Shown: in pieces, positions 18,500 to 49,964 of the stretch | How the letters are laid out: each line of letters starts with the position of its first letter | Numbering within the stretch: the first letter of the stretch is position 1 | From: Chiloscyllium plagiosum | Lineage: Eukaryota | NCBI RefSeq assembly: GCF_004010195.1 | Contig: NC_057755.1 | Coordinates: forward strand, 7,868,676-7,932,675 | Direction of reading: 5' to 3' | DNA length: 64,000 nt | Position numbers and translations under genes: made by a program | The notes under the pieces: generated by a model | Seen by the model: the letters and a program-made list of their open reading frames with translations, nothing else | Database searches by the model: none | Told to the model about the DNA's origin: nothing

Positions 18500-19377
18500 T
18501 TAACCAACGTCAATATCAAAAGGAAAGGATGCTTCATCATCTTCGTCATCTCTTCCCTGAATTTGGTTTTGTAGCTGTAAAAATACGTGGGTTTGTACAG
18601 GAACTCATGAGAATATACCCAGATTCAGTGGCAAAATATGTTGGAGCTGTGTTATCACCTCGGTAATACGCTGTTGTTGTGAGCTCGTTGGTTAAAAAGT
18701 TAACAACTGCTGTTAGCCACAATAGGACAAAACTGCCTGATACACTGAACAGTAACACGATGGATTTCCTTCTGCTTTTCATCTCAGGATCAGTGCTATT
18801 CTCATTGCTGAGACCCCACAGTGCGCTGCATACTTTGCTTGTCACTAAAATACACTGGAATGTCAAAGAGTTAAGCAGTAATATCAAACAAAAAGGCAGC
18901 CATGCAACTAAAATTTATTTCTGCCGAGAGTAGGCCTCACCTGAAGGCGATATATAAAAGGCCATATTGGAGCGACAGCCCCAGTCAACGCTTGATATTA
19001 TTCAGCTGGAGTTATAGGCAAACCAGAAAAAGAAATCAGGGCAGACAGCGTGGTTGAAATCACAGTGACAGTTCTCACTGTGCAGTAGTTTAATTTGAAC
19101 TTCTGACAACAGATGGTTACAAACGGGTAAATTGCAAAGAAGATAGTGAACCACACAGACATATCCAGTGTGGCAGGATTAACACAGAGAATGAACTAAC
19201 AAACAGCATTGTAGGATAGAAATGAATGTGTAAAGTGATAATTCAAAATATGATGCACAATTACAATAAAAAATGTCACCAGGAAATCTGCAGTTGCCAT
19301 GGCAATTATGTAAGGCAAGATACATTTAGAAAGTCCATAATTTCCACTGGAGAGAATGATGATGACCAGTAGGTTTG
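18500..19377 (-). pseudogene. GPR139/GPR142-like class A GPCR pseudogene, exon 2
   Basis: Acceptor ttcattcttacag|CA at 19377, then ANLLVIIILSSGNYGLSKCILPYIIAMATADFLV. An in-frame TAG lies at the start of TM3 (AVC*FI) and the FDRFVAIC motif is degraded to IYPFVTIC. 18546-18887(-) reads DPEMKSRRKSIVLLFSVSGSFVLLW...SSCTNPRIF. The 3' end is approximate. Confidence 0.85.
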
Positions 19378-19856
19378 CTGTAAGAATGAAAGAGAAGAGA
19401 TTAGTAGTCGGATTCCATAAAGAAATATCACGGAAATGTTTGGGAAATAGTTGGAGGTGAGTTTACAGCGAGTTTCCCAAAGATTTGTGTATAATGTAAA
19501 CGAATGGACTGCATTTTGAGGTCAAAACAACATTGAAAATTTAAAGTCTGTGCTCTTCCAATAAACTTTATATTTCACTAATAGCAAAATCTAAATTAAT
19601 TCTAGATAATTGCTAAATATTTCTTGATTCCAATCAAACATTCTGTTTGGACGCAAACATTGCATTAACATCCAAGAGTTGATTTCTTTGCTGATACCTA
19701 TCCTGGAGGCGCTGTTCAGTAAATGTGCATCATTGAGTCTGTATTCCCCAGTTCCTTCTGATGGATAAGTGACTCTGCAATGAGGATTATTCCTGAAATC
19801 TGTTACATGAACACCAAAACATTCACTGTCCAAGAAGAAAAATAACATTGTCTTAC

Positions 19857-19928
19857 CAAGAACACCAAAGGCTGCAATAAGAGGATAGTAAATGTTCTTT
19901 ATTTGGAGAATTGTAACCAAACTTTCAT
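19857..19928 (-). pseudogene. GPR139-like pseudogene, exon 1
   Basis: ATG at 19928 is one base out of frame with ...VTILQIKNIYYPLIAAFGVL G|gtaaga (phase-1 donor at 19856). Same exon structure as the intact gene. Confidence 0.8.
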
Positions 19929-20000
19929 GAAGAATAAAAAAATTCCCTTACATTATCTGGCTTCGTGTGAAATCTATCAGAGGTCCTTAATTTCACCTTC

Positions 20001-20007
20001 TTTATAA
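20001..20007 (-). promoter_or_regulatory. Candidate TATA box of GPCR pseudogene
   Basis: TTATAAA on minus ~75 bp upstream of the ATG. Confidence 0.45.
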
Positions 20008-20526
20008 ATCAAGCCATCTCTCCCTCAGATTAAACGAGGCCATATAATAACTGTGTCAAAACAATTAGTGGCAGTCCTTTAGCAGTCCTCAGCGTGGCTG
20101 GTTCATCAGGGGGTTAATTACAAAGCTCAGGCCATGAATTTCCAAACATTAGAATTTCTTTGAGTGTGTGAGAGGAAGGGAAGATGAACCCAATGTGTAG
20201 GGAATATTTTGTGAAGGCTAGATAGATCATTCCATTAGTCATTGCTGTTGTGGAATGATGCTAATTTAAGAAAATCTTCAAAAAAGTGTCATTTAATAAT
20301 ATTGTTTAGTCTAAGAATGACAGTGCAATATAATGATACTGACTGCTGTTAATTTCCTCACAGTACAATGCATTGTGTAACGTCATTAGCAGTGATGGCA
20401 ACTGTTATGTAAGATTACTCTTGATTGGCACCTACTCATATTCCTGGCGATGCACAAAATCTAGCATTAACGTTAACTCTAACAGCGCACAGGTGTAAAA
20501 GATAAACTGTCAAGACAGCATGGTGG

Positions 20527-29244: not shown

Positions 29245-30497
29245 CTTCCTACCATCAATCCAATTTTGTATCCAGTTGGCTAGCTCTCCTAGATCCCATG
29301 AGATTTAACGTTACTCAACAACCTACCCATACGATACCTTATCAAAGATCTTGATTAAGTCCATGTAGAAAATGGTTATTGCACAGTCTTCATCTACCTC
29401 GTGGTTCCCACTTCAAAAAACCAGAATCAATCAGGACTTTGTTTTGGCCAGAGTTGGAGAATTGTGTGTAGTTCTCACTGAAACCAGAGGATGGATGTGA
29501 TTGAACTGGAGGAAGTGCAAAGGAGATTCTCCATGAATGTTGCTGTGGGTGTCACAATGCAGCTGTGAAGAGGGTGGTTCATAAGCTCGGCTGCTTTCTT
29601 TAGAGCAGGAATCGGGGTAAATAATACTATGTGGGGCATGGACAGTGCGGATAAACAGTAGTTGTTTTCCCATTGTCGAATGTCCAATAAGAAGGCGGGA
29701 TAATTTTAAACTGAAAGGCTTAGTGGGGAGCATGAGGAAAACACTTCTCTGCTCGAGGATGGAAGGGGCCTGCAATACACTGACTGGGAGTGTAGTTGAG
29801 ACGGGAAACCTCTCAACCTTTAAACAATACTTGATGAACAGTTGAAATATAACATTCAAGCCCACGGGCCAAGTGCTGAAAAATAGGATGAATGTGGATT
29901 CAGTATAATTTCAGTGGGACAAACATGATAGCTGCCCAGTTATTTCTCCTCTATGTGATTCTGTCATTCTGTAATTCTGAAGGGAAGGTTCCGAATTAGT
30001 TTCTTTTCTCGCATTTGTCTGAGTATCAGTTCCAGTTCTTGATATGATCAGTATCAGCTTCACGTTCTGTATTAGAGTGCTCGTTCACAGATAGACTTTC
30101 CCAAATGTGTTGTAAAACTGAATGAACAAGAACAACAGTGGGACAACAGGGTGCAGTAGAACAGCTCTCAAGGAGCTGGACAGCATGAGGTACTGAATGA
30201 CTGGATAACCTCAGCAAAATGAAAGGCTTCACGAAAAAGAATATCAGAAGATATTTAGATATGTATGGCATTGTTAGGATATGGAACAATGCAAGTATTG
30301 TCATTTGAAGATAAATTGAAATTAACTTTGTTGCCTGATAGGTTCAGATTAATCTAGTCTTTAGGGTATTCAATTACAGCGGAAAATCTCAATGATATCA
30401 CATCACTAAATTAAACCTGTTGTCATACTTTGTTTGTTCAAAATGATATTAAAAAATTAAGATATAATCACAATTTCTCTGTGGAGATACAATACAG

Positions 30498-30507
30498 TAT
30501 ATATAAA
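30498..30507 (+). promoter_or_regulatory. Candidate TATA box of GPCR gene A
   Basis: tatatataaa ~100 bp upstream of the ATG at 30603. Confidence 0.5.
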
Positions 30508-30602
30508 AAAATACTGTTTCTGTGTCAGTTCCAGTTTTGAGGGAATGCTCCCGTTCCAACAGATTGGCAGCAGCAAGGACAGGTTGTTTCACAATCAACA
30601 AA

Positions 30603-30669
30603 ATGCATCTTCCAATACAAAAGGTCGTCAAAGTATATTGCACCATCCTTGCTGTTGTTGGTATTCCTG
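30603..30669 (+). CDS. GPR139/GPR142-like GPCR gene A, coding exon 1
   Basis: ATG...MHLPIQKVVKVYCTILAVVGIP G|gtaagt. Consensus phase-1 donor that joins in frame to 37237 (G|TT AAT = GIPVN, TM1 motif). Confidence 0.85.
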
Positions 30670-33600
30670 GTAAGTCTTATAACAACTTAAGTTGCGTACA
30701 TCTCTGCATTAAATCAGACTTATTCCACTCTCTGACTCTTAATCATTTTATTTCCATCTAGCAAGGCAAATAATGATGCTAAATTCCAGTATCCTCACTT
30801 ATTGAGTTCAAAGAAATTCGTTTGATTAGTAGGTTCCTCAGTAATGTGCAGCATTACCTGTTTCTCTATACTGTGCAGAATAGGTTTACCCAGAGCCCAC
30901 CTTGATGGGGTTGGGCTGAGCAGAAGCCCTGGCTGGTCTAGAAAGTGTTTAGCAAGACCACTCTCTCTCTCTGTCTGTGGGAGTCCAAAGCCTGCTATTG
31001 GTCAGATGGGTTTATATAACAACCCACCTGTTAGTGATACCTGGTGTTTCCCATTCCTTGATGGGAAGGGATTGTGTTGGGGGTCTTGCTCAGGCAGCTC
31101 GCTCTAAATAGGCCCAGATACAACAGGTGGGCAACGATCGAGTTGAACAAGTTATTACAGAGTGAGAAGAGAATGTCAGCATGGATAGCTTTGACCATCT
31201 TGTCTGTTGTTTTCAGTCAGTGGATGTGTGGGGGCATGATATTTGTGAGGATAGTTCACTGGGAGGGCCGTTGAACATAGGATTCCAATTATGATGTGTA
31301 ATGTTGGATTATTTGATTGGCAAAAAGACGAGAGAGTTGTGCCATTTGTAAAACGGTGGACAGTGCTGTGGTGTGGAGTTTACTAGGACAAATACTGAGA
31401 TCTGGAGTACAGTGGTAACAGCTCTCACACAGAGGAACAAACAACATTGTCTAACAGGATGTTTCCCATGTTGCACTTTGTTGCTGTTACCCTTTGATGC
31501 TCCTGGAGCAATACTGGTCAATGTGAAGGGGCTCCCACGTACATTCGTTTGGGATTGTTATTTGGACTTTGATTACCAGTTTGAATAAGTGTTATTATTA
31601 TTTTGATTATTGTTATGGTTATTTGTGCGTACCTTTAGGTGAATCCTATGGATATATTTTAAAACCAATTCAATGTGAGACCATAGAGTTACACCATGGA
31701 GGGCAGTATCCCGTCAACTTTGCGAGATCTCTGTTCTTTCACCTGGTCCACGGGGCTCAGAACGGTGGAGATTGCGTGGTACAATAGGGTTTTTCACTGA
31801 TGAATGGCAAGTTGGTTTTGGGTGACTGGTGTGCGATTTAGGATATTTGATATCGTTGTGTTCCTCCAAGGGTCAATCGGGATCAAAAACATCCGGCCAT
31901 ATGGACTGATTGTTAGCTCTGCTGTTGGCATGTTCAGTTGACCTGATGCTCAGGACTCAGGGACTTGTTGAGTTGGATAATATATCTGGGTCACCGGTTG
32001 ATTCATGCCCATCCATAGCACACTGCTAAAAGAATATGAATTATAGATGTATATTGTTGAATCCTTTGATTGTCAAAAAGATATGTATGTTGTACTGCCT
32101 CATTATCCTGGATTGAATGATGTTCTTGGCCCACAACATGGCACGTCATTGCACCAAGTGTCACACGGGATGTCTGTCCAAATAGTGAATGTGGTTTATA
32201 GGTGGGGTGTTTATAGGAGGTCACATATCGATACTGTGTAAAGCCACCCTGTTTCTTAGCTGTTGAAGTTTGGAAATTGTGTAGGGGGGTGGGAATGAGT
32301 TAGTATCGAAGGGATTCGTTGTTGCCAGCTCACAGTTGGATGTTTATAAATGTTTGTAGCATTCTAAACACTGAGCTGTTCACTCCCACAGCACACTCTA
32401 AATGTCAGGGCTGCTACACTAACCCTGCCGGGTGGGAGACATCTGGCACAATGTGTTTTACATCAGGGGAGTAACACAGTGGATCAAACTCTTTGATGCA
32501 ATAACGTCCCCTTTCTTCAATTCCAAAATAGTTCACTTGACAGAAAATGTTATTGTTGGAGTGTTGGTTGGAAAAATATCAGATGAGATTCATGTGGCAT
32601 TCGATAAGACTGTAAGAATGAGAAAACATGGCTGCCATAGAGCCACAGGTTAGTGCAGTACAGAAGACTGAATCAACAGCAATAGCAACAACAAAACAGA
32701 TACTGCTGGGAAAGGTCAGCAGGTCTGGCAGCATCTGCGGAGAGAAATCACAGGAAACGTTTCAGATTCAGGAGCAGTATGCAATGGATTGCAAATCGGA
32801 AATCTTTGCAGCTGGCTGCATATGTTTGGCGCTTAATTTATAAAGTGAAATGTCCCAGTAAATATAAACAGATGTGATAGTTGTTATGAAATTAAAATGG
32901 CAGATTAACAACGTTAGTTCAATGAAGTGCCCTGTACAAATATTTTGTTGACCCAAATAATATTGTTGGTACTGATTAATTTTCCAGCAAGGTTAGGACA
33001 AGCTTGGGGATGTGGCTACATTAATTTACTACTTGTACGTTATTAATCTTGGATTTACAGCTGGACTGTTTCACATTAGTATTTGATTGGAATTGGATGA
33101 ATAACCGTTGAATCTGCTTTTCATAATCTGCCCACAGTTAAATTTCGAGTGTTCGCTGCTCTTCACTTTGAGGTGTGTGTCCTCCTTGGGAGGAGGAAGT
33201 GAACCGTTAATCAGTGAAAAGTCAATCAGCTTTAAGACAATATATAAAAATAAAAATACAAATGAATGGGAATACAAATGTCTGTTTCACCAAATAACTA
33301 ACTTTACTAACTGCAATATTAAGATTATGGTTGATAATTAAATTGGGGAGAATCACCTCGAATTGACAGTCCAGAATTCCGAACATTTAACATGGTGCTT
33401 TAATATACCATACAAGCCTCTACCTCTACCAAGTGCTCTAACGCTGAAGAAGTATTCCACATTAATGAACTTCATTTGCCATTTCTTTTAGTAGTGTAGA
33501 TATTCTTTCCGTATCTACGTCACAAAGTTCTTTATATCTAGACGTGTCATTGTACTTTATGTCAATAACATTGCTCACAAGTCCAGTTTCCAGCATTAGG

Positions 33601-34149
33601 TGCATTTCTGTTACTTTAGTATGATAGTGACAAACGTTCCGACTCGGCCAGGAGCCCAAACTCTGTCACTCGTTGCTTGTTTATTCTACTGTAACCTCAT
33701 ACCTTCCGACACAGCCACATGTTGCCTGACCTTTCCAGCTCAACATTATGTCCACTCTGACTTCCAGCATCTGCTGTGCTTACCATCTCCACATGTTAAC
33801 TCTGTAATGCACCAAACTCAGAATTGTTTACCTTACATTTACAGAAGGATTGATGATCTGTTCCTCAATTACTTATTTTTCCAGTTAACGTTTAATTCCT
33901 GAAAAGAAATCTTCAGCTCTTAAACATATTAATTCTGAGCACATGCTCACAATAAGGAACCCTTGAAAAACTGAACTCAATGAGATTGCAACACTCTTTT
34001 GTTTCATCCTGACCTTAGGTGGAATTGGTTAGGGCTTCTGGAGGTCAGTCATCTTAGTCACCATGCATCTCTGCTGGCTTCTGCATGGTGGTACTTTGAC
34101 CCTAAAATCTGCAGCTGCCTCTATGATGCCCTTCCTTTATCATAATTTC

Positions 34150-34705: not shown

Positions 34706-34709
34706 AAAA

Positions 34710-34992
34710 GATTAGATTAGATTACCTACAGCATGGAAACAAGCCCTTCGGGCTAGCAAGTTCACACCAACCCTCTGAAGAGTAATCCACCCAGACACAT
34801 TCCCCTAACAATTTAGGATAGCATGACAATTTAGCATGGCCAACTCACCTGACTGCACATATTTGGATTGTCGAAGGAAAGCTGCACAGACAATGTGCAA
34901 ACTCCACACAGACAGACGACTGAGGCGGGAATTGAACCTAGGTCGCTGGTGCTGTGAGGCAGCAGGGCAAACCACTGAGCCACCATGCCATC
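34710..34992 (-). mobile_element. HE1/V-SINE-type SINE (duplicate at ~46600-46815)
   Basis: Reverse complement of the head ggatggcatggtggctcagtgg...gctgcctcacagcaccagcgacctaggttcaattcccgcc; (ATTAG)n tail. Confidence 0.82.
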
Positions 34993-35987
34993 CTGACTCT
35001 GCAACTGTACCCCAGAAACACAGTGGGCTTTCCTGTATCTCAGGCAATGTAGATGTTCAAAAAGGTAGATCTCCAATCCCATCAGAAAGGTGAATAGAGC
35101 TGGGCAATGAATATTGGCCCAGCCACGAAAGCTCACATTCCGGTGGGATATTTAAAAATAACGCCCATTACAACATTTGCAAGAGGATATTTCTGAACCC
35201 GAGAGGTGGCTAATGTCTCGGAGAATGTTTCGTTTGGCAGAGAGAAGGAGAAATGTCTTGGCTGAAAGAGTGGATGTTTGGTACTGAGCGGATAATCCCT
35301 ATCATAGCTTATTTTACCAAATCCCATAACTTTCCTAATTCTTAATGGTTTCAACGCCAGGAGACCGATCTTATTGCCTCAGTTTTCTTTGCTAAGTACT
35401 GGTCTGTGTGTTAATGTTTCAAACTCCGGTAAACTACGGTGATTTGAGTGGACAATCCCTTGTCTTCAAAACTGGATCAAATTTGGAGTGGATCATTTTT
35501 TATCTGTGATAATGGACTCAGTATGGGGATATCCAATCCCAGATAAAGATCGAAAAAGGAAGCAGTTGGCGGCAGTACAGAGTTGGCTGTGCATGTGGAG
35601 CTTCATTTTCTTTTTTTCATTGAAGGGATGTGAGTGTCGCTGGTTTGGTCAACATTCACCTCCTTTCCCTAATTGCCCAGAGGGCAGGTAGCAGTCAATC
35701 AGGTTATCGTGGGTCTGGAGTCACACGGTGGCGAGACGAGGTAAGGATGACAGATTGTCTTCTCTGAAGGACATTAGTGAACGAGATGATTTTTCTTCCT
35801 GACAACTGTCAATTATTTCATTGTCATCATTAGACTCATAAAAATTCCACCATCTGCTATGGGGAATGTTGAACCCAGCTCCCCAGATCATTAGCTAAGT
35901 CTATTAATTAACAGTCTCGATATAGTCCCATTAGGACATTATCCTCCAACATCTTTAGTAATGGTGTGAATCCACAGAGATTCAAGA

Positions 35988-36300
35988 TTGGCACAATAGT
36001 TAGCATTGCGGCCTCGCAGTGCCAAGGACCTTGAGTGACTTTCTGTGTGAAGCTTGTACATTCTCCCCATGGCTTCATGAGCTTCCCCTGGGTGCTCTGG
36101 TTTCCCCACACAATCCAAAGGTGAGCAGGTTAGATGGGTGGCTAAGCTAAATTGCCCTATAGTTCCCAGGATATCTGGTTAGGTGAGTTAATCATGATAA
36201 AACCATATGCATTGGGTGAGGTCTGGTTAGAATGCTGTTCAGAAGTGTGCTGCAGATTCGATGGGCCGAATGACCTCTTTCCGCACAATAGGGTTTCTAC
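35988..36300 (+). mobile_element. HE1/V-SINE-type SINE (duplicate at ~47808-48135)
   Basis: ggcacaatagttagcattgcggcctcgcagtgcca...ggtttccccacacaatccaaag...gatgggccgaatgacctc. Confidence 0.75.
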
Positions 36301-37236
36301 GATGTTATCATAGAAACAGACTCTGATGATTGCCATGGAGAATGCTGATTAGGTGGTGAAGATTCCGAGCCCCAGTGTGTTCTCTGAATCTGAGAGGGGG
36401 ATCTCTATTCACAAGGAGAGGTGATTTGGAACATGAGCCTGGACACGAGGCAGGAAGGTTTGCTTAAACTCTGATAAAATGTGTGATTTCTAAACCAGAA
36501 AGTTGCTATGAACAATGCAGCATGGATTCAGGTTATATTTGAGTGGGAGCTATAGTATACAGTACAGCCATGTGGGAGAGTCCCTGTCAAATGTTGCAGT
36601 GCCTATGGTTTCAGTGGGTATGCAGCTTGTGATATGATGGTTCGATTCATTGCTGGATACTTCTGTGGTACAGATTGTCAGGATGCTCAATCCTGTCCAC
36701 GAGGGAGGGACTCAATGCCCTATCAACTGTTCATCAACAGTCATTCCTGGACAGTGTGGATTGATTTAATGTCATTCATATAGTGTGGGTATACACTTCA
36801 GGGGACACTCTGAGCCGTGGAGGCTCCAAAACCAAAGACAGAAATTTTTCAATCAATGTCCACGTTAGGTGCATCCCATTCATTGTTTTATTGATTTGAG
36901 GTGTCCTGATGTGGATGTTGTGATCTCAGGGGAATCTCGAGCCAGTCTGAGTAACCTATAAACCAGGTGAAATCAACCACTGCCAACCCCCCCAAAAAAA
37001 ATAATTGAGCACATGGCTGTGCCTTGTGTGCACAATTTGCTGTTCTCATTCTTCCCCTTCTTTTTAAATTGCAAATGATTCATTTTGAGAGAGCTTGCTG
37101 CTATGGTTCAGATTCTTTAAACTTCATATGACATGGAGCAACATTTATCTTTGTGCTATTATTTTCAGTCTAAGCTCAGGCACGGAGAATGTTTGATCAG
37201 TAACTTCAAGTCTTTCTCTCTCTCTCTCTTTTGCAG

Positions 37237-38120
37237 TTAATCTAGTGGTGATTGTAATCCTAGCTCGGCAGAAGTGTGGTCTTTCTACATGCATCACTCA
37301 CTATCTGGTGGCCATGGCAGCGTCTGATCTACTGTTCACTATTGTTTATTTCATCTTTCGCCGATTCCCTTACTATTATTTTCCACTGTGTTTCCTGGAC
37401 ATCACTCCTGTTTGTACTGTTGTCTATGTCCTTCACGTCTTGCTCATTGATTGCTCTGTCTGGTTCACTGTTGCTTTTTCTTTTGACCGATTTGTTGCGA
37501 TTTGTTTTCATCAGATGAAAGCTAAGTATTGTACAGAGAAAACTGCAAAGTGGGTTGTAGCAACAATCTGCATTTTCTTTTCTTTAAAGAACATTCCCAA
37601 CTACTTTCGATATATACCTCAAAAGATTATCAACAATGTTCCATGGCACTGTAAAACAAGGCTCAGTTATTACAATGACCGGTGGGAAAGTTTTCAATAC
37701 TTTGAACATTTTTTAACACCAATGTTACCATTCACTTTTATTTTCTTTCTCAACGTTCTGACTGCCAGACACATCTTCGAGGCTGTGAAGATGCGTAAGG
37801 GACTGAGGGGCCAGAGAAAAACAGAGAATGACCCAGAGACAGAGAGCAGAAAAGATTCTGTGATTTTACTGTTTGCCATTACCACCAGCTTCATACTTCT
37901 GTGGATTCTATGTGTTTTAAGGTTCTTTCGAGCTGGTGATTCCTTGAATTACGCTAATTATTTGCTCTTTGAAGAAGTCGGATATATGCTGCGGAACCTC
38001 AGTTGCTGCACAAATGCGCTTATTTATGTGGTGACGCAGAAAAAATTCAGAGACCAGTTAAAGTATGCAGCAAAATATCCAGTTATAAAAATAATTCAAT
38101 TGGTGAATAAATCCAAGTAA
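37237..38120 (+). CDS. GPR139/GPR142-like class A GPCR gene A, exon 2 (spliced protein 316 aa, 7TM)
   Basis: (CT)n-ttttgcag acceptor at 37236 and an open frame to TAA 38118-38120. Motifs YLVAMAASDLL (TM2), SVWFTVAFSFDRFVAIC (DRY equivalent), ECL2 Cys, LPF (TM5), SFILLW (TM6), SCCTNALIY (NPxxY equivalent) and KFR (helix 8). Confidence 0.92.
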
Positions 38121-38939
38121 CTGACAGACAAGATTAGACACAGCAGATAATGGAATGACGAGTCCACGTGAGGCATGTGCAGAAGGAGAAGGAGGAACAC
38201 CAACGTGACAACACTCATTTTCTAATGGGTAAGGATGACTCAATCTGAGGGACAAAACAAAAGCGACTGCAGGAACAAAGCCAGTGTAACGTGCTGTCAG
38301 CAAGGAACAACAGTTAGTAGAAAGCTGAACAACAAAAGCAAAACTGAAAGAGGAGTTAGACATGCACCAAAGATACAATCATTCGAAGCAATCCGTTCTC
38401 TGTAGGTGACACGGACACATAAATAAATGAACTGGAGGAACGGATCATCGTTCACTATCGGCCCAGAGTGTAAGACGCAGCGACAGAGTCCTTTCCACTC
38501 TTCCTCACTGAATTAACTGATCCACACATCGTGACAAAGAGAGGAAAAAACAAAGAGTGTTATAAGGAGAAAATAATTCTTGTAAAAACATTCTGTGCCC
38601 TTTGATTGTAAGTTTACTTTCAACAGTAATTTACTTCATTTTCATTCAATCTCTAGTATCATTCTGTTTCTTTAATCCTGCCTTTCCATGAACTAGCTGA
38701 TGGGTTAGTGGGGAATCCAAGGCCAACCAGACGGACTTCTGGACTCTCTCTCTCTGCAGCTCTCAATGACCCAGCTACCCTTTCGATTTAAGATGCTCCT
38801 ACAAATCTGCCTCTTTATATCAGTTACTGTCACCTGACCTAACATCACGTTCGGTGGGTGAACATCAGCTCTGTTTAATTTGTCATGATAAATGTCTTTA
38901 TAAAATGTCTTTGGGGATTATGTTGAGTTAAAGTGGACA

Positions 38940-39011
38940 GTGATGGTACTGTCGTGGTGAGTATAACTGCCTTCCAAGCAGGTGAACTGGGTTTGATTCA
39001 CGGCAATGGCA
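38940..39011 (+). pseudogene. tRNA-Gly(TCC)-derived pseudogene
   Basis: gtggtgagtataactgccttccaagcag...gggtttgattcacgg matches vertebrate tRNA-Gly-TCC. The anticodon arm is intact; acceptor, D and T arms are mismatched. Confidence 0.75.
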
Positions 39012-39549
39012 AGTTGTGATTTTAATATTGATCAACGGGAAATCGAAAAGAGGAATTTGATCAGGATGAGAATATATACAGTTTTCATCCCAAGACGATA
39101 TTTTCCCACAACCCAATCCCTGCCTCCTTCTAATCCTTCTAATCCCACCAAGAATGACTCTGGCTGTGATCCATCTCTGGGGAAGTCGACCCACAGAAAG
39201 AGAGAGCTGGGAGCTGACTGAATGAGCTGGGTCTTGGGTGGAATGGGCGTCTATGAGTGACAGACCTGGGGGTATTTCGAATAGGTTCTGGCAACCACTG
39301 TCCCTTTCACCATGTGCACTGAGCAGGGAGTGAGTATCTGTGTGTTTCTGTCTGTATGTGTGTGAGGGTGTGGGGTGTGTTTTAATGTCAATCCCAGTTG
39401 GATCCTTTAATACTCCCCATTCCCTCCCTGAACCGTCTCCTCCTGGAGCAGGGTATGTCCACAATGGGAAAGAGGGAGTGTGAGAGACCCTCGAGTGAGC
39501 TGCAACCAACTAGAATGGAGAGTATCACCACATTAATCTCACCATGTCT

Positions 39550-39795
39550 TTCCTTAACTCCTGTTTATCTCTGAGTGATCCTCTTTTCTGTCTATCTCTT
39601 ATACATTCCACTTCTCTCTCAATCTTTTTTCTTTCTCACACTATCTCTCTCTTTTTACTGATACCCTTTCTTTTTGCCTTTTTCTCTCCTACTTCGTCTT
39701 TCGACTTGTGGATATTTTTCCCACTCTCTTCCTTTCTTTCTTCTCGTTTCACTTTCTCTCTATCTTTCTTTCCTTCCCTATTTTTGTCTTTCAAT
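39550..39795. repeat. Pyrimidine-rich low-complexity tract (duplicate at ~51420-51640)
   Basis: Almost exclusively C/T on the plus strand. Confidence 0.8.
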
Positions 39796-40089
39796 CCTGA
39801 AACTGCAGCCCTCCAACACCAATTTTACGCACCCCACTTCCTCAAATTTTGCAGTCCCACAAACTTAGCACCCCCCCTTCCATTGTCCTGTCTAATTGCC
39901 CTCCCCGTGGGTCTTTCTTCTCCCTTGAACTGCGCATTCTGTACTTCCTACATTACACATCCACTGTATATCAGAGACCCTCTGTGTCTCCATACATCCA
40001 CAATACTCTCCATTCCATGTCCCTGCCCCTGGGGCGGGTGACAAAAGGAGCATATGTATAGACAAAACTGTCCTTTGCCTACCTGCTGT

Positions 40090-41110
40090 AACGTCAGAGA
40101 GTTATACAGCACAGAAATCGACCCTACAGGCCAATCTGTCCACACTAACCATATTCTAAGACTAAGAAGTTCCACCTACCTGTGCTTGGTCCGTATCCTT
40201 ACAAACCTTTCGTATTCATTAACTTATCCAAATGCACATCTTGATAAGGCAAATCGTAATGGCGAGGTCCTGGGAGTGTTGCTGATCAAATACACCTTTG
40301 ATTTCAGGTTGACAGTTCCTTGAAAATATAGTCACAGGTAGATAGGATCGTGAAGAATGCATTTGGTATGCTTTCCTTTGTTGGTCAGAGCATTGAGTAT
40401 AAGAGTTGCAAGGTCATGTTGCAGCTGTTCATGACATGGTTCGGCCAGGTTTGGAATTCTGCATTCAGTTCTGGTCTCCTGCTTATCGAAAGGATGTTAT
40501 GAAAACTGAAAGGGTTCACAAAAGTCCTACAAGGACATTGCCAGTGTTGAAGACTTTGAGGCTGAATAGTCTGGGGCTGTTTTCCCTGGAACATTGGAGG
40601 CCGATGAGAGACCTTATAGAGATTTATAAAATCATGTGGCATGGATAGATTCAAACAAGAGGTGAGAAGGGAAAGATTTAAAAGGGACCAAAGGGGCAAC
40701 ATTTTCATGCAGAGAATGGTGTGAATATAGAATGAGCTGCCTGAGGAAGCGGTGGAGGCTGGCAAAATTACTGCATTTAAAAGACAAGGAGAAACTGAGG
40801 ACCGCAGAGGATCGAGATCAGTGTCGAGAGTGTGGTTCTAGAAAAGTACCACAGATCATTCCTGATGAAGCCTTATGACCGAAACGTTGATTCTCCTGCT
40901 CCTCAGATGCTGCCTGACCTGCTGTGCTTTTCCAGCACCACACTCCTGACAACATTTAAAATGCATCTTTATGGGTAAATGAACTGAAAGGGCTTAGAGG
41001 AATATGGGCCAAGTGCTGGCAAATGGGACAAGATTTAGTTAGAATATCTGGTTGGATTGAACGAGTTCGACGGAAAGGGTTTTCTTTTGCTGTTCATCTC
41101 TATGACTCTC
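40090..41110 (+). mobile_element. CR1 3' fragments with inserted Penelope-type inverted-repeat piece (duplicate at ~51940-52960)
   Basis: LEFCIQFWSPAYRKDV, LGLFSLEHWRPMRDLIEIYKIM; insert ~40790-40948 with a CTGATGA...GAAAC core. Confidence 0.75.
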
Positions 41111-41119
41111 TGCCTTTTA

Positions 41120-42820
41120 AACGTTAGAACTGTACCTGCATACATCACTTTCTCCGGCAGTTCATTCCAGCACGCAAACCACAATCTGTGTAAAAAAAGA
41201 GTTGCCCCTTATATCCTTCTTAAATCTTTCTCTTCTCATTTTAAAGTATGCCCCTACTTTTGATAGGGAAACGACCCTCATTATTTCCCTTATCTATACA
41301 CCTTACGATTGTATAAACCTCAATAAGGTCATCCCTCCACCTCCAATGTTCCAGTGAAAAACAACCTAACCTTTCTTGTCTATTTTTACATCTCAAACTC
41401 TCCTTTTCCGGCAACTTCTTGATAAATCTTTGTAGGACCCTCTCCAGTTTGATCTTTCCTTAACAGGTCACTAGAATTGCACACATTAATCCAGAAGAGG
41501 TTTCCCCAACACTCTGTAAAACGTCAAGGTTCACATCCCAACTGCGAGACTCAATGGTCTGAACAATGAAGGCAAGAATGCTAAAAGCCTTCTTAACCAC
41601 CCTGCCTACTCTCTAATGCAAATTTCAAAGAACTTTGTACCTGAACCCCGAAGCTTCTCTGCTGTATAAACTGCCACTAATTCATGTCCTTGTGTGTTTT
41701 ACTAAAATGCAATCCCTCACACGTTTCCAAATTAAACTCCATCTGATACTCCTCAGACCATTGAAGCAAATGATCAAGATCTCTATGCAATCTTTAGTAG
41801 CATTCTTCACTGACCACTTCACCAGCAATTTTGGTGCCTTCCGCAAACTAACTAACCATGCTTTCTATGTTGTCATCAGAATCATTTATATAAATGACAA
41901 ACAAAAGTGGATCTTGTACCGATCCTGATGGAACACCGCTGGTCACAGACCTCTTGTACAAAAAATATACCTCTGCTATCAGTGACTGTCTGTTCCCTGT
42001 CATGAAGCCAAATTTGTATCCAATTAGCAAGCTCACTCTGAAACCCATGTGATCGAATTGTACTAACTGGTCACGATACAGAGCCTTGTCAAAGTTGCTC
42101 AAGTAAACAATGTCTACCACTCTGTCCACATCAACTATTTTGGTCACTTCTTAAAAAACTTAATCAAATTTTGTGAGACATGATTTTCCTCACGCAAAAC
42201 CATGCTGCCTATCCCTGTTCAATCCTTACCACTCAAAATGCATATACATCCCAACTTTCAGAATCACCCCCAAAGTCAGACTCACAAGTCTATAATTTCC
42301 TGGCTTCTCCTTACATCCCTTCTTAAATAATGGCACAACATTAGCCATCCTCCAGCCCTCTGGTATTTCAAACGTGTATCTGGATGATACAAATAATTCT
42401 GCCCCACAACTTCCTCCCCAATGCCCCACCATGTCATGGATACACTTGATTAGTCCTCGAGATTTATCTATCTGTATGTCTTCTAAGCCCTCCAGCACTT
42501 TCTCTTCTGTCATGTTAAACCTGTTTTCAAAACATCAATACTTATTTCACCTTGGGCCTCTATCAAAACTAATGCAAAATATTCACCTCCTGAGTTTCAA
42601 CACAAAGATAACCTTGTTAATCTTTAAGCGGTCTTGCTCTCTGGAGTTGCTGTCTGGCTCTTAATGTCGTTATAGAATCTTTTTCGATTATCATGAACAT
42701 TATCTGCCAGGGCTATCTCACATCTCTCTTTCCCTTCCTAATTTATTTCCTCACAATGCTCCAATACACTTGATAGCCTTCAAGAGTTTCAGTTGATCCC
42801 AATTGTCTGTATCCAACATA
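41120..42820 (-). mobile_element. CR1 LINE ORF2 (RT), decayed; truncated by gap
   Basis: WRMANVVPLFKKGCKEKPGNYRLVSLT; VDIVYL..FDKA; VTSGVPSGSVQDPLLFVIYINDSD. Confidence 0.88.
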
Positions 42821-43320
42821 NNNNNNNNNNNNNNNNNNNNNNNNNNNNNNNNNNNNNNNNNNNNNNNNNNNNNNNNNNNNNNNNNNNNNNNNNNNNNNNN
42901 NNNNNNNNNNNNNNNNNNNNNNNNNNNNNNNNNNNNNNNNNNNNNNNNNNNNNNNNNNNNNNNNNNNNNNNNNNNNNNNNNNNNNNNNNNNNNNNNNNNN
43001 NNNNNNNNNNNNNNNNNNNNNNNNNNNNNNNNNNNNNNNNNNNNNNNNNNNNNNNNNNNNNNNNNNNNNNNNNNNNNNNNNNNNNNNNNNNNNNNNNNNN
43101 NNNNNNNNNNNNNNNNNNNNNNNNNNNNNNNNNNNNNNNNNNNNNNNNNNNNNNNNNNNNNNNNNNNNNNNNNNNNNNNNNNNNNNNNNNNNNNNNNNNN
43201 NNNNNNNNNNNNNNNNNNNNNNNNNNNNNNNNNNNNNNNNNNNNNNNNNNNNNNNNNNNNNNNNNNNNNNNNNNNNNNNNNNNNNNNNNNNNNNNNNNNN
43301 NNNNNNNNNNNNNNNNNNNN
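42821..43320. other. Assembly gap (500 N) at the duplication junction
   Basis: Run of exactly 500 N, probably a placeholder size. Confidence 1.
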
Positions 43321-46300
43321 ACACAGAGGATCAAACAACATTGTCTAACAGGATGTTTCCCATGTTGCACTTTGTTGCTGTTACCCTTTGATGCTCCTGG
43401 AGCAATACTGGTCAATGTGAAGGGGCTCCCACGTACATTCGTTTGGGATTGTTATTTGGACTTTGATTACCAGTTTGGATAAGTGTTATTATTATTTTGA
43501 TTATTGTTATGGTTATTTGAGCGTACCTTTAGGTGAATCCTATGGATATATTTTAAAACCAATTCAATGTGAGACCATAGAGTTACACCATCGAGGGCAG
43601 TATCCCGTCAACTTTGCGAGATCTCTGTTCTTCCACCTGGTCCACGGGGCTCAGAACAGTGGAGATTGGGTGGTACAATAGGGTTTTTCACTGATGAATG
43701 GCAAGTTGGTTTCGGGTGACTGGTGTGCGATTTAGGATATTTGATATTGCTCCGAGGTTCCAATCGGGATCAAAAACATCCGGCCATACGGACTGATTGT
43801 TAGCTCTGCTGTTGGGATGTTCAGTTGACCTGATGCTCAGGATTCAGGGACTTGTTGAGTTGGATAATATATCTGGGTCACCGGTTGATTCATGTCCATC
43901 CGTAGCACACTGCTAAAAGAATATGAATTATAGATGTATATTGTTGAATCCATTGATTGTCAAAAAGATATATATGTTGTACTGCCTCATTACCCTGGAT
44001 TGAATGATGTTCTTGGGCTCACAGCAGGGCACATCATTGCACCAATTGTCACACGGGATGTCTGTCCAAATAGTGAATGTGGTTTATAGGTGGGGTGTTT
44101 ATAGGAGGTCACATATCGATACTGAGTAAAGCCACCCTGTTTCTTAGCTGTTGAAGTTTGAAATTGTGGAGGGGGGTGGAAATGAGTTAGTATCGAAGGG
44201 ATTCGTTGTTGCCAGCTCACAGTTTGATGTTGATAAATGTTTGCAGTATTGTAAACACTGAGCTGTTCATTCCCACAGCACACTGTAAATGTCAGGACTG
44301 CTGCACTATCCCTGTTGGTTGGGGGTTATCTGGCACAGTGTGTTTTACATCAGGGGAGTAACACAGTGGATCAAACTCTTTGATGCAATAGCGTCCCCTT
44401 TCTTCAATTCCAAAATAGTTCACTTGACAGAAAATGTTATTTTTGGAGTGTTGGGTGGAAAAATATCAAATGAAATTCATGTGGTATTCGATAAGACTGT
44501 AAGAATGAGAGAACATGACTGCCATAGTGCCACAGGTTAGTGCAGTACGGAAGACTAAGTCAACAGCAATAACAACAACAAAACAGATACTGCTGGGAAA
44601 GGTCAGCAGGTCTATCAGCATCTGTGGAGACAAATCAGAGTTAACGCTTCAGATCCAGGAACAGTATGCAATGGATTGCAAATGGGAAATCTTTACAGCA
44701 GGCTGCATATGTTTGGCGCTCAGTTTACAAAGTGAAATGTCCCAGTAGATATAAACAGATGTGACAGTTTTATGGCAGATTAACAACGTTAGTCCAATGA
44801 AGTGCCCTGTACAAATATTTTGTTGACCCAAATAATATTTTTGGTACTGATTAATCTTCCAGCAAGGTTAGGACAAGCAAGGGGATGTGGCTACTACTTT
44901 TTAGTAGTAATTTACTACTTTTACGTTATTAAGCATGGATTTACTGCTGGAATGTTTCACATCAGTATTTGATTGGAACTGGATGAATACTTGTTGAATC
45001 TGCTTTTCATAATCTGCCCACAGTTGAATTTCGAGTGATCGCTGCTCTTCACTTTGAGGTGTTTTCTCCTTGGGAGGAGGAAGTGAACCGTTAATTAGTG
45101 AAAAGTCAATCAGCTTTAAGACAATATATAACAATAAAAATACCAATGAATGGGAATACAAATGTCTATTTCACCAAATAACTAACTTTACTAACTGCAA
45201 TATTAAGATTATGGTTTATAATTAAATTGGGGAGAATCACCACGAATTGACAGTCCAGAATTCCGAACATTTAACATGGTGCTTTAATATACCATCCAAG
45301 CCTCTCTTTCTACCAAGTGCTCTAACGCTGAATAAGTATTCATTTGCCATTTCTCTTATTAGTGCAGATATTATTTCCATATCTACGTCACAAAGTTCTT
45401 TATATCTGGATGCGTCTGTGTACTCTATGTCAATAACATTGCTCACAAGTCCAGTTTCCAGCATTAGGAGCATTTCTCTTACTTTAGTGTGATAGTGATA
45501 AACGTTCCGACTCGGTCAGGAGCCCAAACTCTGTCACTCGTTGCTTGTTTATTATACTGTAACCTCTGGTCTTCGGACACAGCCACATGTTGCCTGATCT
45601 TTCCAGTTCCACATTCTATCCACTCTGACTTCCAGCATCTGCTGTCCTTACCATCTCCACATGTTAACTCTGTCATGCATCAAACTCAGAATTGTTTGCC
45701 TTGCATTCACAGAAGGATTGATGATCTGTTCCTCAATCACTTCGTTTTCCAGTTAACTTTTAATTCCTGAAAAGAAATCTTCAGCTCTTAAACATATTAA
45801 TTCTGAGCACATATTCACAATAAGGAACCCTTGAAAAACTGAACTCAATGAGATTGCAACACTCTTTTGTTTCGTCTTAGGTGGAATTAGTTAGGGGTTT
45901 TGGTGGTCAGTCATCTTAGTCACCATACATCTCTGCTGGCTTCAGCATGGTTGTACTTTGACCCTAAAATCTGCAGATGCCACAACGATGCTCTTCCTTC
46001 ATCATAATTTCAAAAATAGAGATGTAGATGTAGCTTTAATTCCAGGATCAACAGATTTCTGTCTTTATCAATACCCTGGACCAACCATTGATGAGAAAAT
46101 GACCTGGCCCAGCCACACAAGTGCTGTAGCCACAGCAGTATGTCAGATACTCTGATAACTGTGACAGTAAGCTCCCTGACTGCTTTTAAACTCCATGTCC
46201 ACCATCCAGAAGCGCAGGTCAGGGCTGGGATGGAATGATCGTCATGTACTGGCTGAGTGCAGCTCAAATGGAGCATTGAGTGTAACACTCACAGATCTCC

Positions 46301-49080
46301 ACATTGTACAGGACAGACAACCGGTCCTAGTGATTGGCACACAGATCATTCAGTACTCACTCTCTTCACCAATGACACCATGACCAGCAATGAAAATCAT
46401 CAACATGATCCAAACCAGTGCAAGTCTCATTTGAATAGCACTTTCCATGATCTCTCGGCAGAACAAGGACAGCAGATGCAGAGAAACACCATCACATGCA
46501 AGTTCTTTTTCAAACTAGATTTAATTCTGACTGAAAAATATTGTCTTCCTTCACTGTTGCTGGGTAAAAAGATGAGATTAGATTTCCTACTGTATGGAAA
46601 CAGACCTCTGAAGAGTAATCCACCCATAACAATTTAGGATAGCATGACAATTTAGCATGGCCAATTCACCTGACCTGCACATCTTTGGATTGTCGGAGGA
46701 AAGCCACGCAGACAATGTGTAAACTCCACACAGACAGACGACTGAGGCGGGAATTGAACTCAGGTCCTGGGTGCTGTGAGGTAGCAGCGCAAATCACTGA
46801 GCCACCATGCCATCCTGATTCTGCAACTGTACCCCAGAACACATTGGGCTTCCCTGTGTCTCAGGTAATGTAGATGTTCAAAAAGACAGATCTCCAATCC
46901 CATCACAATGGTGAATAGAACTGGGCAATGTATATTGGCCCAGCCACGAAAGCTCACATTCCAGTGGGGCATTTAAAAATAACCCCCATTACCACATCTG
47001 CAAGAGGATATTTCTGAACCCGAGAGGTGGCTAGTGTCTCGGGAATGTTTCGTTTGGCAGAGAGAGGAGAAATGTCTTGGCCAAAAGGGCGGATGCTTGG
47101 TACTGAGCGGATAATCCCTATCATGGCTGATTTTACCAAATCCCATAAATTTCTGGATTTTTAATAGTTTCAAAGCCAGGAGACCGATTTATTGCCTCAG
47201 TTTTCTTTGCTAAGTACTGGTCTGTGTGTTAATGTTTCAAACTCCGGTAAACTGCGGTGATTTGAGTGGTCAATCCCTTGTCTTCAAAACTGGATCAAAT
47301 TTGGACTGGATCATTTCATATTTGTGATAATGGACTCAGTATGGGGATATCCAATCCCAGATAAAGATCTAAAAAGGAAGCAGTTGGCGGCAGTACAGAG
47401 TTGGCTGTGCATATGGAGCTCCATTTTCATTTTTTCATTGAAGGGATGTGAGTGTTGCTGGTTTGGTCATTATTCACCACCTTTCCATAATTGCCCAGCG
47501 GGCAGATAACAGTCAATCAGGTTGTCTTGGGTCTGGAGTCACACGGTGGCGAGACGAGGGAAGGATGACAGATTGTCTTCTCTGAAGGACATTAGTGAAC
47601 GAGATGGTTTTTCTTCCTGACAACTGTCAATTATTTCATTGTCATCATTAGACTCATTAAAATTCCACCATCTGCTATGGGGAATGTTGAACCCAGCTCC
47701 CCAGATCATTAGCTAAGTCTATGAATTAACAGTCTCGATATAGTCCCATTAGGACATTATCCTCCAACATCTTTAGTAATGGTGCGAATCCACATAGATT
47801 TAAGATTAGCACAGTAGTTAGCATTGCGGCCTCACAGTGCCAAGGACCTGGGTTTGATTCCATCCTTGAGTGATTGTCTGTGTGAAGCTTGCACATTCTC
47901 CCCGTGTCTGCATGAGCTTCCTCTGGGTGCTCTGGTTTCCCCACACAATCCAAAGTTGAGCATAGTAGATGGGTTGGCTAATCTAAATTTCCGAATAGTG
48001 CCCAGGATATCTGGTTAGGTGAGTTTATCATGATTTAACCACATTCATTGGGTGAGGTCTGTTTAGAATGCTCTTCAGAAGTGTGCTGCAGATTCGATGG
48101 GCCGAATGACCTCTTTCTGCACGTTAGGGTTTCTATGATGCTATCATAGAAAGAGACTCTGAAGATTGCCATGTAGAATGCTGGTTAGGTGATAAAGATT
48201 CCTAGCCCCAGTGTGTTCTCTGAATCTGAGAGGGGGAATCCCTATTCACAAGGAGAGGAGTTTGGGAACTTGAGCCTGGACACCAGGCAGGAAGCTTTGC
48301 TTAAACTCTGATAAAATGTGTGATTTCTAAACCAGAACGTTGCAATGAACAATGCAGCATGGATTCAGGTTTTATTTGAGTGGGAGTTGTAGTACATGGT
48401 GTACGGCCATGTGGGAGAGTCCCTGCCAAATGTTGCAGTGCTTATGGTTTCGATGGGCATGCAGCTTGTGATATGGTGATTCGATTCATTGGTGAATACT
48501 TCTGTGGTACAGATTGCCAGGATGCTCAATCCTGTCCATGAGGGAGGGACTCATTTCACAATTATTTGTTCAACAACATTCATTCCTGGACAGTGTGAAG
48601 TGATTCAATGTCGTTCATATAGTGTGGGTATACAATTCAGGGGACAATCTGAGCTGTGGAGGTTCCAAAACCAAAGACAGAAATTTTGCAATCAATGTCC
48701 ATTTTAGGTGTATCCCATTCATTGTTTTATTGATTTGAGGTGTCCTGATGTGGATGTTGTGATCTCAGCAGAATCTCCAGCCAGTCTGAATAACATATAA
48801 ACCAGTTGAAATCAACCACTGCCAACCCAAAAAAAGTCATTGAGCACATGACTGTGTCTTGTGTGCACAATTTGCCGTTCCCATTCTTCCGCTTCTTTTT
48901 AAATTGCAAATGATTCATTTTGAGAGAGCTTGCTGCTGTGGTTCAGATTGTTTAAACTTCATATGACATGGAGCAACATTTATCTTTGTCTTTATTATTT
49001 TAAGTCTAAGCTCAGGCACGGAGAATGTTTGATCATTAACTTAAAGACTTTCTCTCGCTCTCTCTCTCTCTCTCTTGCAG

Positions 49081-49964
49081 TTAATCTAGTGGTGATTATA
49101 ATCTTGGCTCGGCAGAAGTGTGCTCTTTCTCCATGCACCACTCACTATCTGGTGGCCATGGCAACGTCTGATCTACTGTTCACGATTGTTTACTTCATCT
49201 TTCGGCGATTCCCTTACTATTATTATCCACTGTGTTTCCTGGACATCACTCCTGTTTGTACTGTTACCTATGTCCTTCACCTCTTGCTCATTGATTGCTC
49301 TGTCTGGTTCACTGTTGCTTTCACTTTTGATCGATTTGTTGCGATTTGTTTTCATCAGATGAAAGCTACGTACTGTACAGAGAAAACTGCATTGAGGGTT
49401 GTAGCAGCAATCTGCATTTTCTTTTCTTTAAAGAACATTCCCAATTTCTTTCGATATATACCTCAAAAGATTATCAACAATGTTCCATGGCACTGTAAAT
49501 CAAGTCGCAGTTATTATAGTGAAGGGTGGAAACGTTTTCAATACTTTCAACATTTTTTAACACCAATGTTACCATTCTCTTTTATTTTCTTTCTCAACTT
49601 CTTAACTGCCAGACACATCTTCGAGGCTGTGAAGATGCGTAAGGGACTGGGGGGTCAGAGAAAAACAGAAAATGATCCAGAAATAGAGAGCAGAAAAGAT
49701 TCTGTGATTTTATTGTTTGCCATTACCACCAGCTTCGTACTTCTGTGGTTTCTGTGTGTTTTAAAGTTCTTTCAAGCTGGTGATTCCTTGAATTACAATA
49801 ATTATTTGCTCTTTAAAGAAGTCGCATATATGCTGCGGAACCTCAGTTGCTGCACAAATGCGCTTATTTATGTGGTGACACAGAAAAAATTCAGAGACCA
49901 GTTAAAGTATGCAGCGAAATATCCAGTTATAAAAATAATTCAATTGGCAAATAAATCCAAGTAA
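49081..49964 (+). CDS. GPR139/GPR142-like GPCR gene B, exon 2 (exon 1 not visible, probably in gap)
   Basis: tctcttgcag acceptor at 49080; 884-nt open exon, the same length as in gene A. About 35 aa differences in 294 by manual count; all 7TM motifs retained. Confidence 0.88.

Follow-up and report, generated by a model that had tools for sequence, protein, structure and literature searches.

The locus considered here raises the question of what kind of receptors are encoded by three related genes lying close together in the genome of the shark Chiloscyllium plagiosum, and what these receptors might detect. The window, i.e. the whole stretch of DNA that was analysed, comprises 64,000 nucleotides of contig NC_057755.1. 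Three class A GPCR loci were confirmed where the initial annotation had placed them (Table 1), and these loci (genes A and B, and a pseudogene) belong to a class A GPCR family of sharks and rays that numbers more than 2,400 copies.

Table 1. Features of the receptor locus (positions within the window)
Feature	Coordinates	Strand	Description
Pseudogene, exon 2	18469..19377	-	Runs from the end of TM1 through the C-terminus; in-frame stops at positions 19198, 19004 and 18917; two frameshifts, near 19020 and 18562
Pseudogene, exon 1	19857..19929 (approx.)	-	Holds the first half of TM1; donor GT at 19856, followed by a 479-nt intron
Pseudogene, weak copy of promoter element	20021..20030	-	Low score (4.6); AT-rich box downstream
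Gene A, promoter element	30477..30510	+	10-nt near-palindrome at -126, then TATA-like box near -100
Gene A, exon 1	30603..30669	+	67 nt; holds the start codon, a very short N-terminus and the first half of TM1; GT donor in phase 1
Tandem duplication unit 1 (visible part)	31427..42820	+	Intron, exon 2 and 3' flank of A
Gene A, exon 2	37237..38120	+	Class A 7TM receptor; open to stop codon
Assembly gap (N)	42821..43320	.	Expected place of promoter and exon 1 of B
Tandem duplication unit 2	43321..54490	+	91–92% identical to unit 1, introns and flanks included
Gene B, exon 2	49081..49964	+	Open; protein 88% identical to A

The spliced frame of gene A encodes 316 aa with no stops, and its N1.50 is residue 24, which leaves few extracellular residues ahead of TM1. 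Exon 2 of gene B differs from that of A by 35 residues over 293, and 20 of the 38 non-synonymous changes between the two genes fall on the extracellular side. The divergence of A and B was about equal in exon 2 (6.8%) and in the introns (6.7%). Duplicate assembly of two alleles was rejected as the source of the A/B pair, since the two units are too divergent throughout. The unplaced contig C90083 (G000; locus L176) carries an intact exon 1 and ends at the base homologous to the right edge of the assembly gap; gene B is therefore probably complete, with its exon 1 deduced from this contig.

The pseudogene, with three in-frame stops and two frameshifts, is only 33–37% identical to A and 45–55% identical to another subfamily. 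On these identities it is a member of a subfamily other than that of A and B and, therefore, not a product of their duplication. Thus, of the earlier description of one pseudogene and two open paralogues made by tandem duplication, the three loci and the A/B duplication stood, but the pseudogene falls outside it. The proposed two-exon structure with a phase-1 intron in TM1 held, as the phase-1 acceptor two bases ahead of the 1.50 codon is common to all three loci. A very short N-terminus, ascribed to both visible exons 1, was verified for gene A; an in-frame start codon was sought in exon 1 of the pseudogene and none was present, and its short N-terminus is deduced from homology.

The family motif yielded 2,438 exact matches genome-wide (0 for the reversed-pattern control), and all of the first 100 matches fitted the family HMM. 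These 100 comprised 41 loci with an intact main exon, 39 broken and 20 cut by gaps, the intact fraction being taken from contigs 1–8, where one subfamily dominates. About 1,000 intact genes are therefore likely in the genome. A second motif (522 matches) was too strict, missing gene A and the largest subfamily, and was used for overlap alone: 13 of its 14 matches in the same range adjoined a match of the first motif. The family total, based on one motif plus this overlap, is estimated at about 2,600 loci. The closest pairs among 95 intact exons 2 were 98.4% and then 97.8% identical, and no allelic inflation of the count was seen in this sample, with unplaced contigs surveyed in part. The initial annotation had proposed a lineage-expanded birth-and-death family, with a genome-wide count as its check and only a few copies as the adverse outcome; the observed scale goes beyond that claim.

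The splice acceptor was kept in all 95 intact exons 2, and an exon 1 with start codon and donor was located for 16 of 19 diverse loci. Because the intron and promoter are retained, the copies were made by DNA-level duplication, and many have since decayed; retention of these features also led us to reject a retrocopy or transposon-cargo origin. The 10-kb flanks of 20 loci (four compared with the rest) displayed patchy, decaying homology and no fixed element. Subfamilies common to skate and other sharks show that the family is old, and the best 120 of 734 homologues all bear shark or ray names.

The genes belong to class A. The 7tm_1 profile scored 66.8 and 65.8 bits for A and B (cut-off 30.5), and was found in all 25 members scanned with Pfam, one of which also touched TAS2R (E 0.012); no Pfam chemoreceptor family was above cut-off for A or B. 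The predicted model of exon 2 (pLDDT 91) fitted class A structures at a TM-score of about 0.7. Its input alignment included GPR139/142 rows, so the model is not independent evidence. A Foldseek search with this model did not single out GPR139 (rank 38), and the ESM Atlas returned generic class A clusters. D2.50, D3.49-R3.50, P5.50, W6.48, N7.49, Y7.53 and both TM3-ECL2 cysteines were present in 92–95 of the 95 intact members, which thereby retain the G-protein-facing core, including a DRF motif; P6.50 and P7.50 are absent from the family.

We computed dN/dS for 31 disjoint paralogue pairs. In the core the ratio was 0.36–0.44, compared with 0.56–0.68 (against its own dS) or 0.79–0.95 (against the global rate) on the extracellular side, and this contrast was found in 28 of the pairs. 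Extracellular values of up to about 1, against about 0.4 in the core, agree with a diversification on the pocket side that goes beyond what had been proposed, although relaxed constraint on the loops can yield the same contrast. Of 42 sites with a ratio above 1, 34 lie within the 116 extracellular sites (298 in total), as do all six sites at p<0.01; a single site, L142, passed Bonferroni correction, and no gene-wide dN/dS exceeded 1. Entropy among the 95 intact members was near 3 bits at pocket positions 3.32, 6.54, 6.58, 7.32 and 7.35, and below 0.2 in the core motifs. The paralogues thus conserve the core and differ on the side predicted to form the pocket.

Databases name members of this family GPR139, and the initial annotation called them GPR139/GPR142-like, but this label does not hold. 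GPR139 and GPR142 (L-Trp/L-Phe receptors; PDB 7VUG) are the nearest named relatives, with which the family shares the phase-1 intron before N1.50, in the same position in the GPR142 and GPR139 of this genome, and the lack of Pro at 7.50; the family and these receptors fall on the same chordate branch, apart from those of protostomes (97/92). However, GPR139 and GPR142 are single conserved genes, here found as separate single best-match loci (GPR142 on C24, 92% identical to a named shark GPR142; GPR139 on C21), whereas the family comprises thousands of copies with 20–22% identity to them. In trees of 70 rows (one) and 46 rows (the others and the AU test), which omitted the majority of the retrieved rows and were freed of long-branch rows and near-duplicates, the family formed its own clade (100/100) and GPR139 plus GPR142 grouped without it (100/99), in the strict sense an outcome named in advance as adverse; the label falls and the repertoire idea stays. 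An arrangement with GPR139/142 as the immediate sister group of the family was not rejected by the AU test (p 0.127), and a family-only profile matched GPR139 best among solved structures (E 7e-15; next 4e-9).

The Trp/Phe ligands carried over from these receptors find no footing either. The agonist pocket of GPR139 consists of E3x32, F3x33, H5x43, W6x48, R6x51 and N7x38 (PMC8807744). Among the 95 intact members W6x48 is kept, but F3x33 occurs in 11, H5x43 in 25 and N7x38 in 15, and Glu3.32 and Arg6.51 are outside the six commonest residues at their sites. Relative to GPR139/142 the family has lost these two residues and Pro6.50, and it has kept the TM3-ECL2 cysteine pair that they lack.

The closest branch consists of unnamed, conserved vertebrate receptors also auto-labelled GPR139, which we term L3 (e.g. 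coelacanth, lungfish, bowfin, teleosts) and L4 (coelacanth XP_005988539, Odontesthes KAM4562537). Support for the family plus these lineages was 99/94, and for L4 as sister 93/81 (unstarred). Like the family, both keep the cysteine pair, and L4 also lacks Pro6.50; unlike it, L3 and L4 have an invariant pocket and are each represented in this genome by a single clear match (C98156 for L3; C26 for L4, 64%). A literature search for the function of L3/L4 receptors found none. The nematode Srw family (PF10324) is a chemoreceptor expansion from the same wider peptide-receptor group, and seven of the 13 Srw-model matches in this genome were family loci. However, A and B had no model match and the seven passed weakly, below galanin-like receptors, so the likeness reflects at most a parallel expansion.

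Promoters that are otherwise unalignable share an element 85–145 nt upstream of the start codon, the 3' half of which, as found in gene A, is conserved across 29 subfamily promoters. These regions were examined after a lead and after the element had been noticed by eye. De novo search of 16 unalignable promoters (9 of 26 being left out because they aligned with another promoter or lacked sufficient length) placed the best motif in -160..-80 with an LLR of 43.7, above all 40 intron controls (≤37.9) and eight other windows (≤35.0). When all 400 nt were searched, the motif was not above controls (32.5 vs up to 32.3), a 16-nt motif search did not beat its controls, the element scored ≤5 in 3 of 17 promoters, and k-mer enrichment was borderline after multiple testing. 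Searches seeded on loci L070 and L099 recovered mostly repeats. By general resemblance to olfactory O/E sites, the element is a putative site of this kind. In several promoters a homeodomain-like core was visible by eye immediately 5' of the element. Mouse OR promoters are marked by O/E, homeodomain and TATA motifs (excerpt of PMC12547500).

In a single-cell library of unstated tissue, stranded reads of one subfamily stacked at its 3' end (mean depth 28.1 vs 0.47; 23–28 starts); the depth was very low, with some 30 reads out of 13 million records. RNA depth over exon 2 of gene A was near repeat background, and no spliced exon 1–exon 2 reads were seen in the two read sets examined.

On balance, we lean towards the family being an overlooked chemosensory repertoire, probably acting in olfactory neurons. 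On this reading, EBF and homeodomain factors would act on the shared compact promoter, with its homeodomain-like core, O/E-like palindrome and TATA-like box, to activate a single member or a small number of them in any one neuron. Having hardly any N-terminus, each receptor would use its helical pocket to recognise its own small water-borne molecule or short peptide, and would signal via a G protein, probably by the Go/TRPC2 pathway characteristic of shark olfactory neurons. Like OR, TAAR, V1R/ORA, V2R/OlfC and T2R, the family is a large, clustered repertoire of hundreds to thousands of copies with many pseudogenes, and it resembles vertebrate olfactory repertoires in its constrained core, variable pocket and short N-terminus and, putatively, in its O/E-like element. 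Unlike them, it is of separate origin and has a coding intron in TM1; descent from OR, TAAR, V1R, V2R or T2R is unsupported by Pfam, the trees being built from other families. Several observations weigh against the olfactory reading: the near-background RNA depth over gene A and the lack of spliced reads; the olfactory neurons of the catshark, which are all microvillous and already express V2Rs (excerpt of PMC10116579); and the catshark OR-family genes expressed elsewhere than in the nose (excerpt of PMC11979771). More tentatively, and as a possibility somewhat short of probable, we propose an independent shark and ray olfactory family of about 1,000 intact genes, with a GPR139-related peptide-receptor origin and a mammalian-type EBF/homeodomain promoter logic.

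The chief rival reading, though an unlikely one, is that the family instead serves immunity or barrier epithelia, where leukocytes or sentinel cells would detect microbial peptides or metabolites, as do expanded formyl-peptide or Mas-related receptors; we know of no immune GPCR family near 1,000 intact members with one compact promoter. Fast copy turnover and pocket variation would nevertheless suit host-pathogen races as well, and EBF1, a factor that also drives B-cell genes, would bind an O/E-like site just as well, EBF not being nose-specific. The single-cell library need not be olfactory, but its very low depth, like the homeodomain-like core, speaks against this reading. OR genes themselves stray from the nose: one conserved gene is reportedly expressed in immune cells (excerpt of PMC13113109), and several catshark OR-family genes are expressed elsewhere, with or1 and or4 spleen-specific (excerpt of PMC11979771).

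Receptors in gonad, ducts or brain that read variable signals of the animal itself (pheromones, peptides of mating or of egg and sperm, cues for individual recognition) would continue the peptide-receptor habit of the SPR/FMRFamide/GPR139 group, but we regard this as improbable. To our knowledge no matching expanded ligand family exists, the N-terminus is minimal, and Arg6.51 and the acidic 3.32, conserved in single-copy relatives, have been lost. In its favour, the predicted ECL2 hairpin and fold match peptide receptors, protostome GPCRs resembling peptide receptors form the outgroups in our trees, and the receptors for AST-B, proctolin and FMRFamide are relatives of GPR139 (excerpt of PMC12208981).

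Mostly neutral inflation of duplication-prone cassettes in repeat-rich chromosomes, with a few copies doing an ordinary job and loops weakly constrained, appears more improbable still. The 39 broken of 80 assessable copies, the matching exon and intron divergence of A and B, and the kilobases of flank common to neighbouring copies are as it would predict. However, the low core dN/dS over independent pairs argues against it, as do the subfamilies shared with skate, the promoter elements retained where the remaining promoter is unalignable, and the many deep subfamilies still open, given that intact members are only 32–75% identical pairwise (5th–95th percentile 38–75%). Finally, true GPR139/GPR142 duplicates sensing aromatic amino acids, a reading implied by the names in databases and by the initial annotation, are very improbable: the structural match, the TM1 intron and the AU result would fit, but both orthologues lie elsewhere, their clade excludes the family, and the ligand-pocket residues are mostly gone.

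A literature search found no paper on this family. Cartilaginous fishes have been credited with 20–62 olfactory receptor genes (PMC10869828) and described as relatively poor in GPCRs (PMC8455134), and the small repertoire of the large, complex shark nose has been explained by sensitivity traded against discrimination (excerpt of PMC10116579). More than 2,400 loci, with about a thousand likely intact genes, contradict the statement of GPCR paucity whatever the function of the family. If immune, it would be the largest such GPCR family known to us. If olfactory, it would add one more independent origin to those of the vertebrate chemoreceptor families and remove the paradox of the small repertoire: that of the shark nose would be among the largest in fishes, and not the smallest in vertebrates.

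Three class A GPCR loci were identified in the window by tblastn and Pfam, in agreement with the group of related receptors proposed in the initial annotation. Gene A encodes a spliced product of 316 residues, residue 24 of which is N1.50; its closest named homologue, among the best 120 of 734 homologues, comes from a carpet shark (71%). Genes A and B, described initially as two open paralogues made by tandem duplication, indeed both lie within a duplication of at least 11 kb (91–92% identity), which is split by an N gap at the expected place of exon 1 of gene B. The unplaced contig C90083 (locus L176), which probably fills this gap, ends at the base homologous to the right edge of the gap and carries an intact exon 1, and therefore gene B is probably complete. 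Close siblings of both genes, with about 96% DNA identity to gene B, are also present on unplaced contigs C95541 (L002/L175), C49259 (L005) and C90083. The minus-strand locus contains 3 stops and 2 frameshifts, and no in-frame start codon was found in it, so that its designation as a pseudogene holds; it is 33–37% identical to gene A and was assigned to another subfamily.

Coordinates of the receptor loci, neighbouring sequence features and related loci
Feature	Location	Strand	Remarks
Gene A, exon 1	window 30603-30669	+	67 nt
Gene A, exon 2	window 37237-38120	+	after 6.6-kb intron
Gene B, exon 2	window 49081-49964	+	open; 88% identical to gene A
Pseudogene	window 18469-19929	-	
Decayed retroelement frames	window 600-4000, 24480-24860, 55300-55700, 60390-61200		
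Tandem array	window 57189-57729		43-bp unit, about 13 degenerate copies
Minisatellite	window 61865-63056		45-bp unit, about 26 copies
Short GC- and CpG-rich stretch	window 63100-63330		adjoins the 45-bp minisatellite
L3 match	L058 (G000:C98156)		one clear match in genome
L4 match	L299 (G000:C26:36.6 Mb)		one clear match in genome
Open frame, presumably somatostatin-receptor-like	L042:211-2007 (G000:C9, near 94.39 Mb)		599 codons

The decayed frames presumably include pieces of LINE-like reverse transcriptase and esterase-type ORF1, and we also take them to include one fragment each of an LTR-type RNase H and of a Penelope-like endonuclease. The GC- and CpG-rich stretch could be a promoter. Elsewhere in the genome, ECL2 of the L042 frame is extended by a minisatellite that stays in frame and spans roughly 170 residues.

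The window, located on contig C46 of the 3.56-Gb genome, gives little idea of how large the family is. Among the matches listed in a genome search with gene A, all 134 scored candidates showed at least 65% identity (28 with an in-frame stop, by hand count), and each distant relative used as a query revealed more than 100 further, more distant members, many of them on small chromosomes. A degenerate TM3 motif, present in 56 of 65 loci collected beforehand (two of the misses were GPR142), had 2,438 matches genome-wide, against 0 for the reversed control. The first 100 hits all matched the family profile, which supports the lineage expansion suspected initially; exon 2 was intact in 41 of these loci, broken in 39 and cut by a gap in 20. 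A stricter TM7 motif gave 522 matches, and 13 of the 14 lying within the shared range had a TM3 match beside them. Taken together, these counts indicate approximately 2,600 loci, with roughly 1,000–1,300 intact main exons. Since the sample covers contigs 1–8 only and is dominated by one subfamily, and since 8 of 30 first exons in the gene A subfamily look damaged (hand count), about 1,000 intact genes is a fair figure, although an estimate rather than a count. The same intron acceptor was retained in all 95 intact second exons collected, whose median pairwise identity was 43%.

Exon 1 was found for 16 of 19 diverse loci. A recurring promoter element had been noticed by eye before the de novo search, for which 26 promoters were reduced to 17 non-aligning ones. 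With 400-nt promoters the best 10-mer scored no higher than the controls; all but one of its 10 strongest hits fell in the stretch from -98 to -144. Within the -160 to -80 interval the motif score (43.7) exceeded all 40 intron controls and every other interval. The element is a near-palindrome of pyrimidines followed by purines, usually with an AT-rich box within about 25 nt downstream and, in several promoters, a homeodomain-like core upstream. By its likeness to the O/E consensus, the element is a putative O/E site. EBF1 is active in B cells as well, and immune or epithelial sensing is the foremost alternative, albeit an unlikely one. The best reading, towards which we lean, is a putative chemosensory, probably olfactory, repertoire. 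Parts of two published studies describe mouse OR promoters as marked by O/E, homeodomain and TATA motifs (PMC12547500), and the EBF half of an enhancer composite as accepting pyrimidine/purine stretches (PMC5608512).

Transcription was analyzed in 2% of one single-cell run from a related organism. Gene A attracted few paralogue reads, close to background, and no splice joint was seen at this gene in the run. At a member of the largest subfamily, reads from one strand piled up over the 3' flank and the stop codon, reaching a depth of 28.1 vs 0.47 (23–28 starts), with reads in the opposite direction close to the 5' end of the exon; repeats in the same run were read from both strands. If the library is of the 3' droplet type, the pile-up would be sense polyadenylated RNA of one or a few paralogues. 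This suggests that the family is transcribed somewhere; nothing about the nose follows from it.

In 31 disjoint close pairs, with regions fixed from residue numbering before counting, dN/dS was 0.47–0.63 overall (depending on transition weighting), 0.36–0.44 for the core and cytoplasmic side, and 0.56–0.95 (depending on the method) for the extracellular side; the contrast was seen in 28 of the 31 pairs. The sites that change fastest, placed using helix limits from a predicted structure model, lie at the top of TM2, directly behind the ECL2 cysteine and at 7.32 and 7.35; one site passed Bonferroni correction. In class A receptors such sites face the pocket or vestibule. This pattern fits many ligands with one output, and leaves positive selection unproven. 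Beside the chemosensory reading, receptors for endogenous signals appear improbable, and near-neutral inflation of copy number slightly more so. Within the family alignment, Asp at 3.37, a candidate common ligand or ion anchor, is almost invariant (93 of 95 intact members), and the otherwise near-invariant N1.50 is replaced by Ser in 28 of 95.

The family lies outside the GPR139/GPR142 clade. The GPR142 of this genome, reached by an Srw-profile search, is 92% identical to a named shark GPR142, and served as the starting point for locating its GPR139. The highest Srw-model scores in the genome belong to three second exons (L031-L033), which we assume to be galanin-receptor-like. In the careful tree (46 rows) the family forms a single clade (100/100) apart from GPR139 plus GPR142 (100/99), so that the initial attribution to GPR139/GPR142-like receptors does not stand; the family joins lineages L3-L6 and a lamprey receptor (99/94), with L4 as a weakly supported sister (93/81) and two amphioxus receptors as the next branch (94/83). 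The quick tree (70 rows) gave a concordant grouping, and the AU test did not reject direct sisterhood of the family with GPR139/142 (p 0.127). The family shares an intron with GPR139, which is also its nearest solved structure by profile. W6.48 is the only residue it keeps among those that the available portion of the GPR139 structure paper assigns to the pocket (PMC8807744), and it has the TM3-ECL2 cysteines absent from GPR139/142. The GPR139 label is wrong, and true GPR139 duplicates are a very remote prospect. At least four conserved vertebrate lineages (L3-L6) and the lamprey receptor (proteins of this set: P0375, P0378, P0372) are likewise auto-named GPR139 and form their own clades beside the family. 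L3 occurs in sharks, chimaera, coelacanth, lungfish and ray-finned fishes, with no tetrapod name among its best 120 homologues; a caecilian sequence was placed in L5. Skate and several shark orders are represented within subfamilies, which indicates that diversification is older than the shark-ray split.

Family sequences are already present in databases under automatic names. No report of the expansion was found in the openly accessible papers searched, partly at title and abstract level; GPR139 was absent from the top 40 of 2,259 entries in one such search, and a term look-up in the main texts of the catshark, zebra shark, bamboo shark and shark-nose papers returned no mention of GPR. Available sections of a vertebrate survey give 20–62 olfactory receptor genes for cartilaginous fishes (PMC10869828), and those of the whale shark paper describe a "relative paucity" of GPCRs in this group (PMC8455134). 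The size of the family by itself contradicts this published generalisation.
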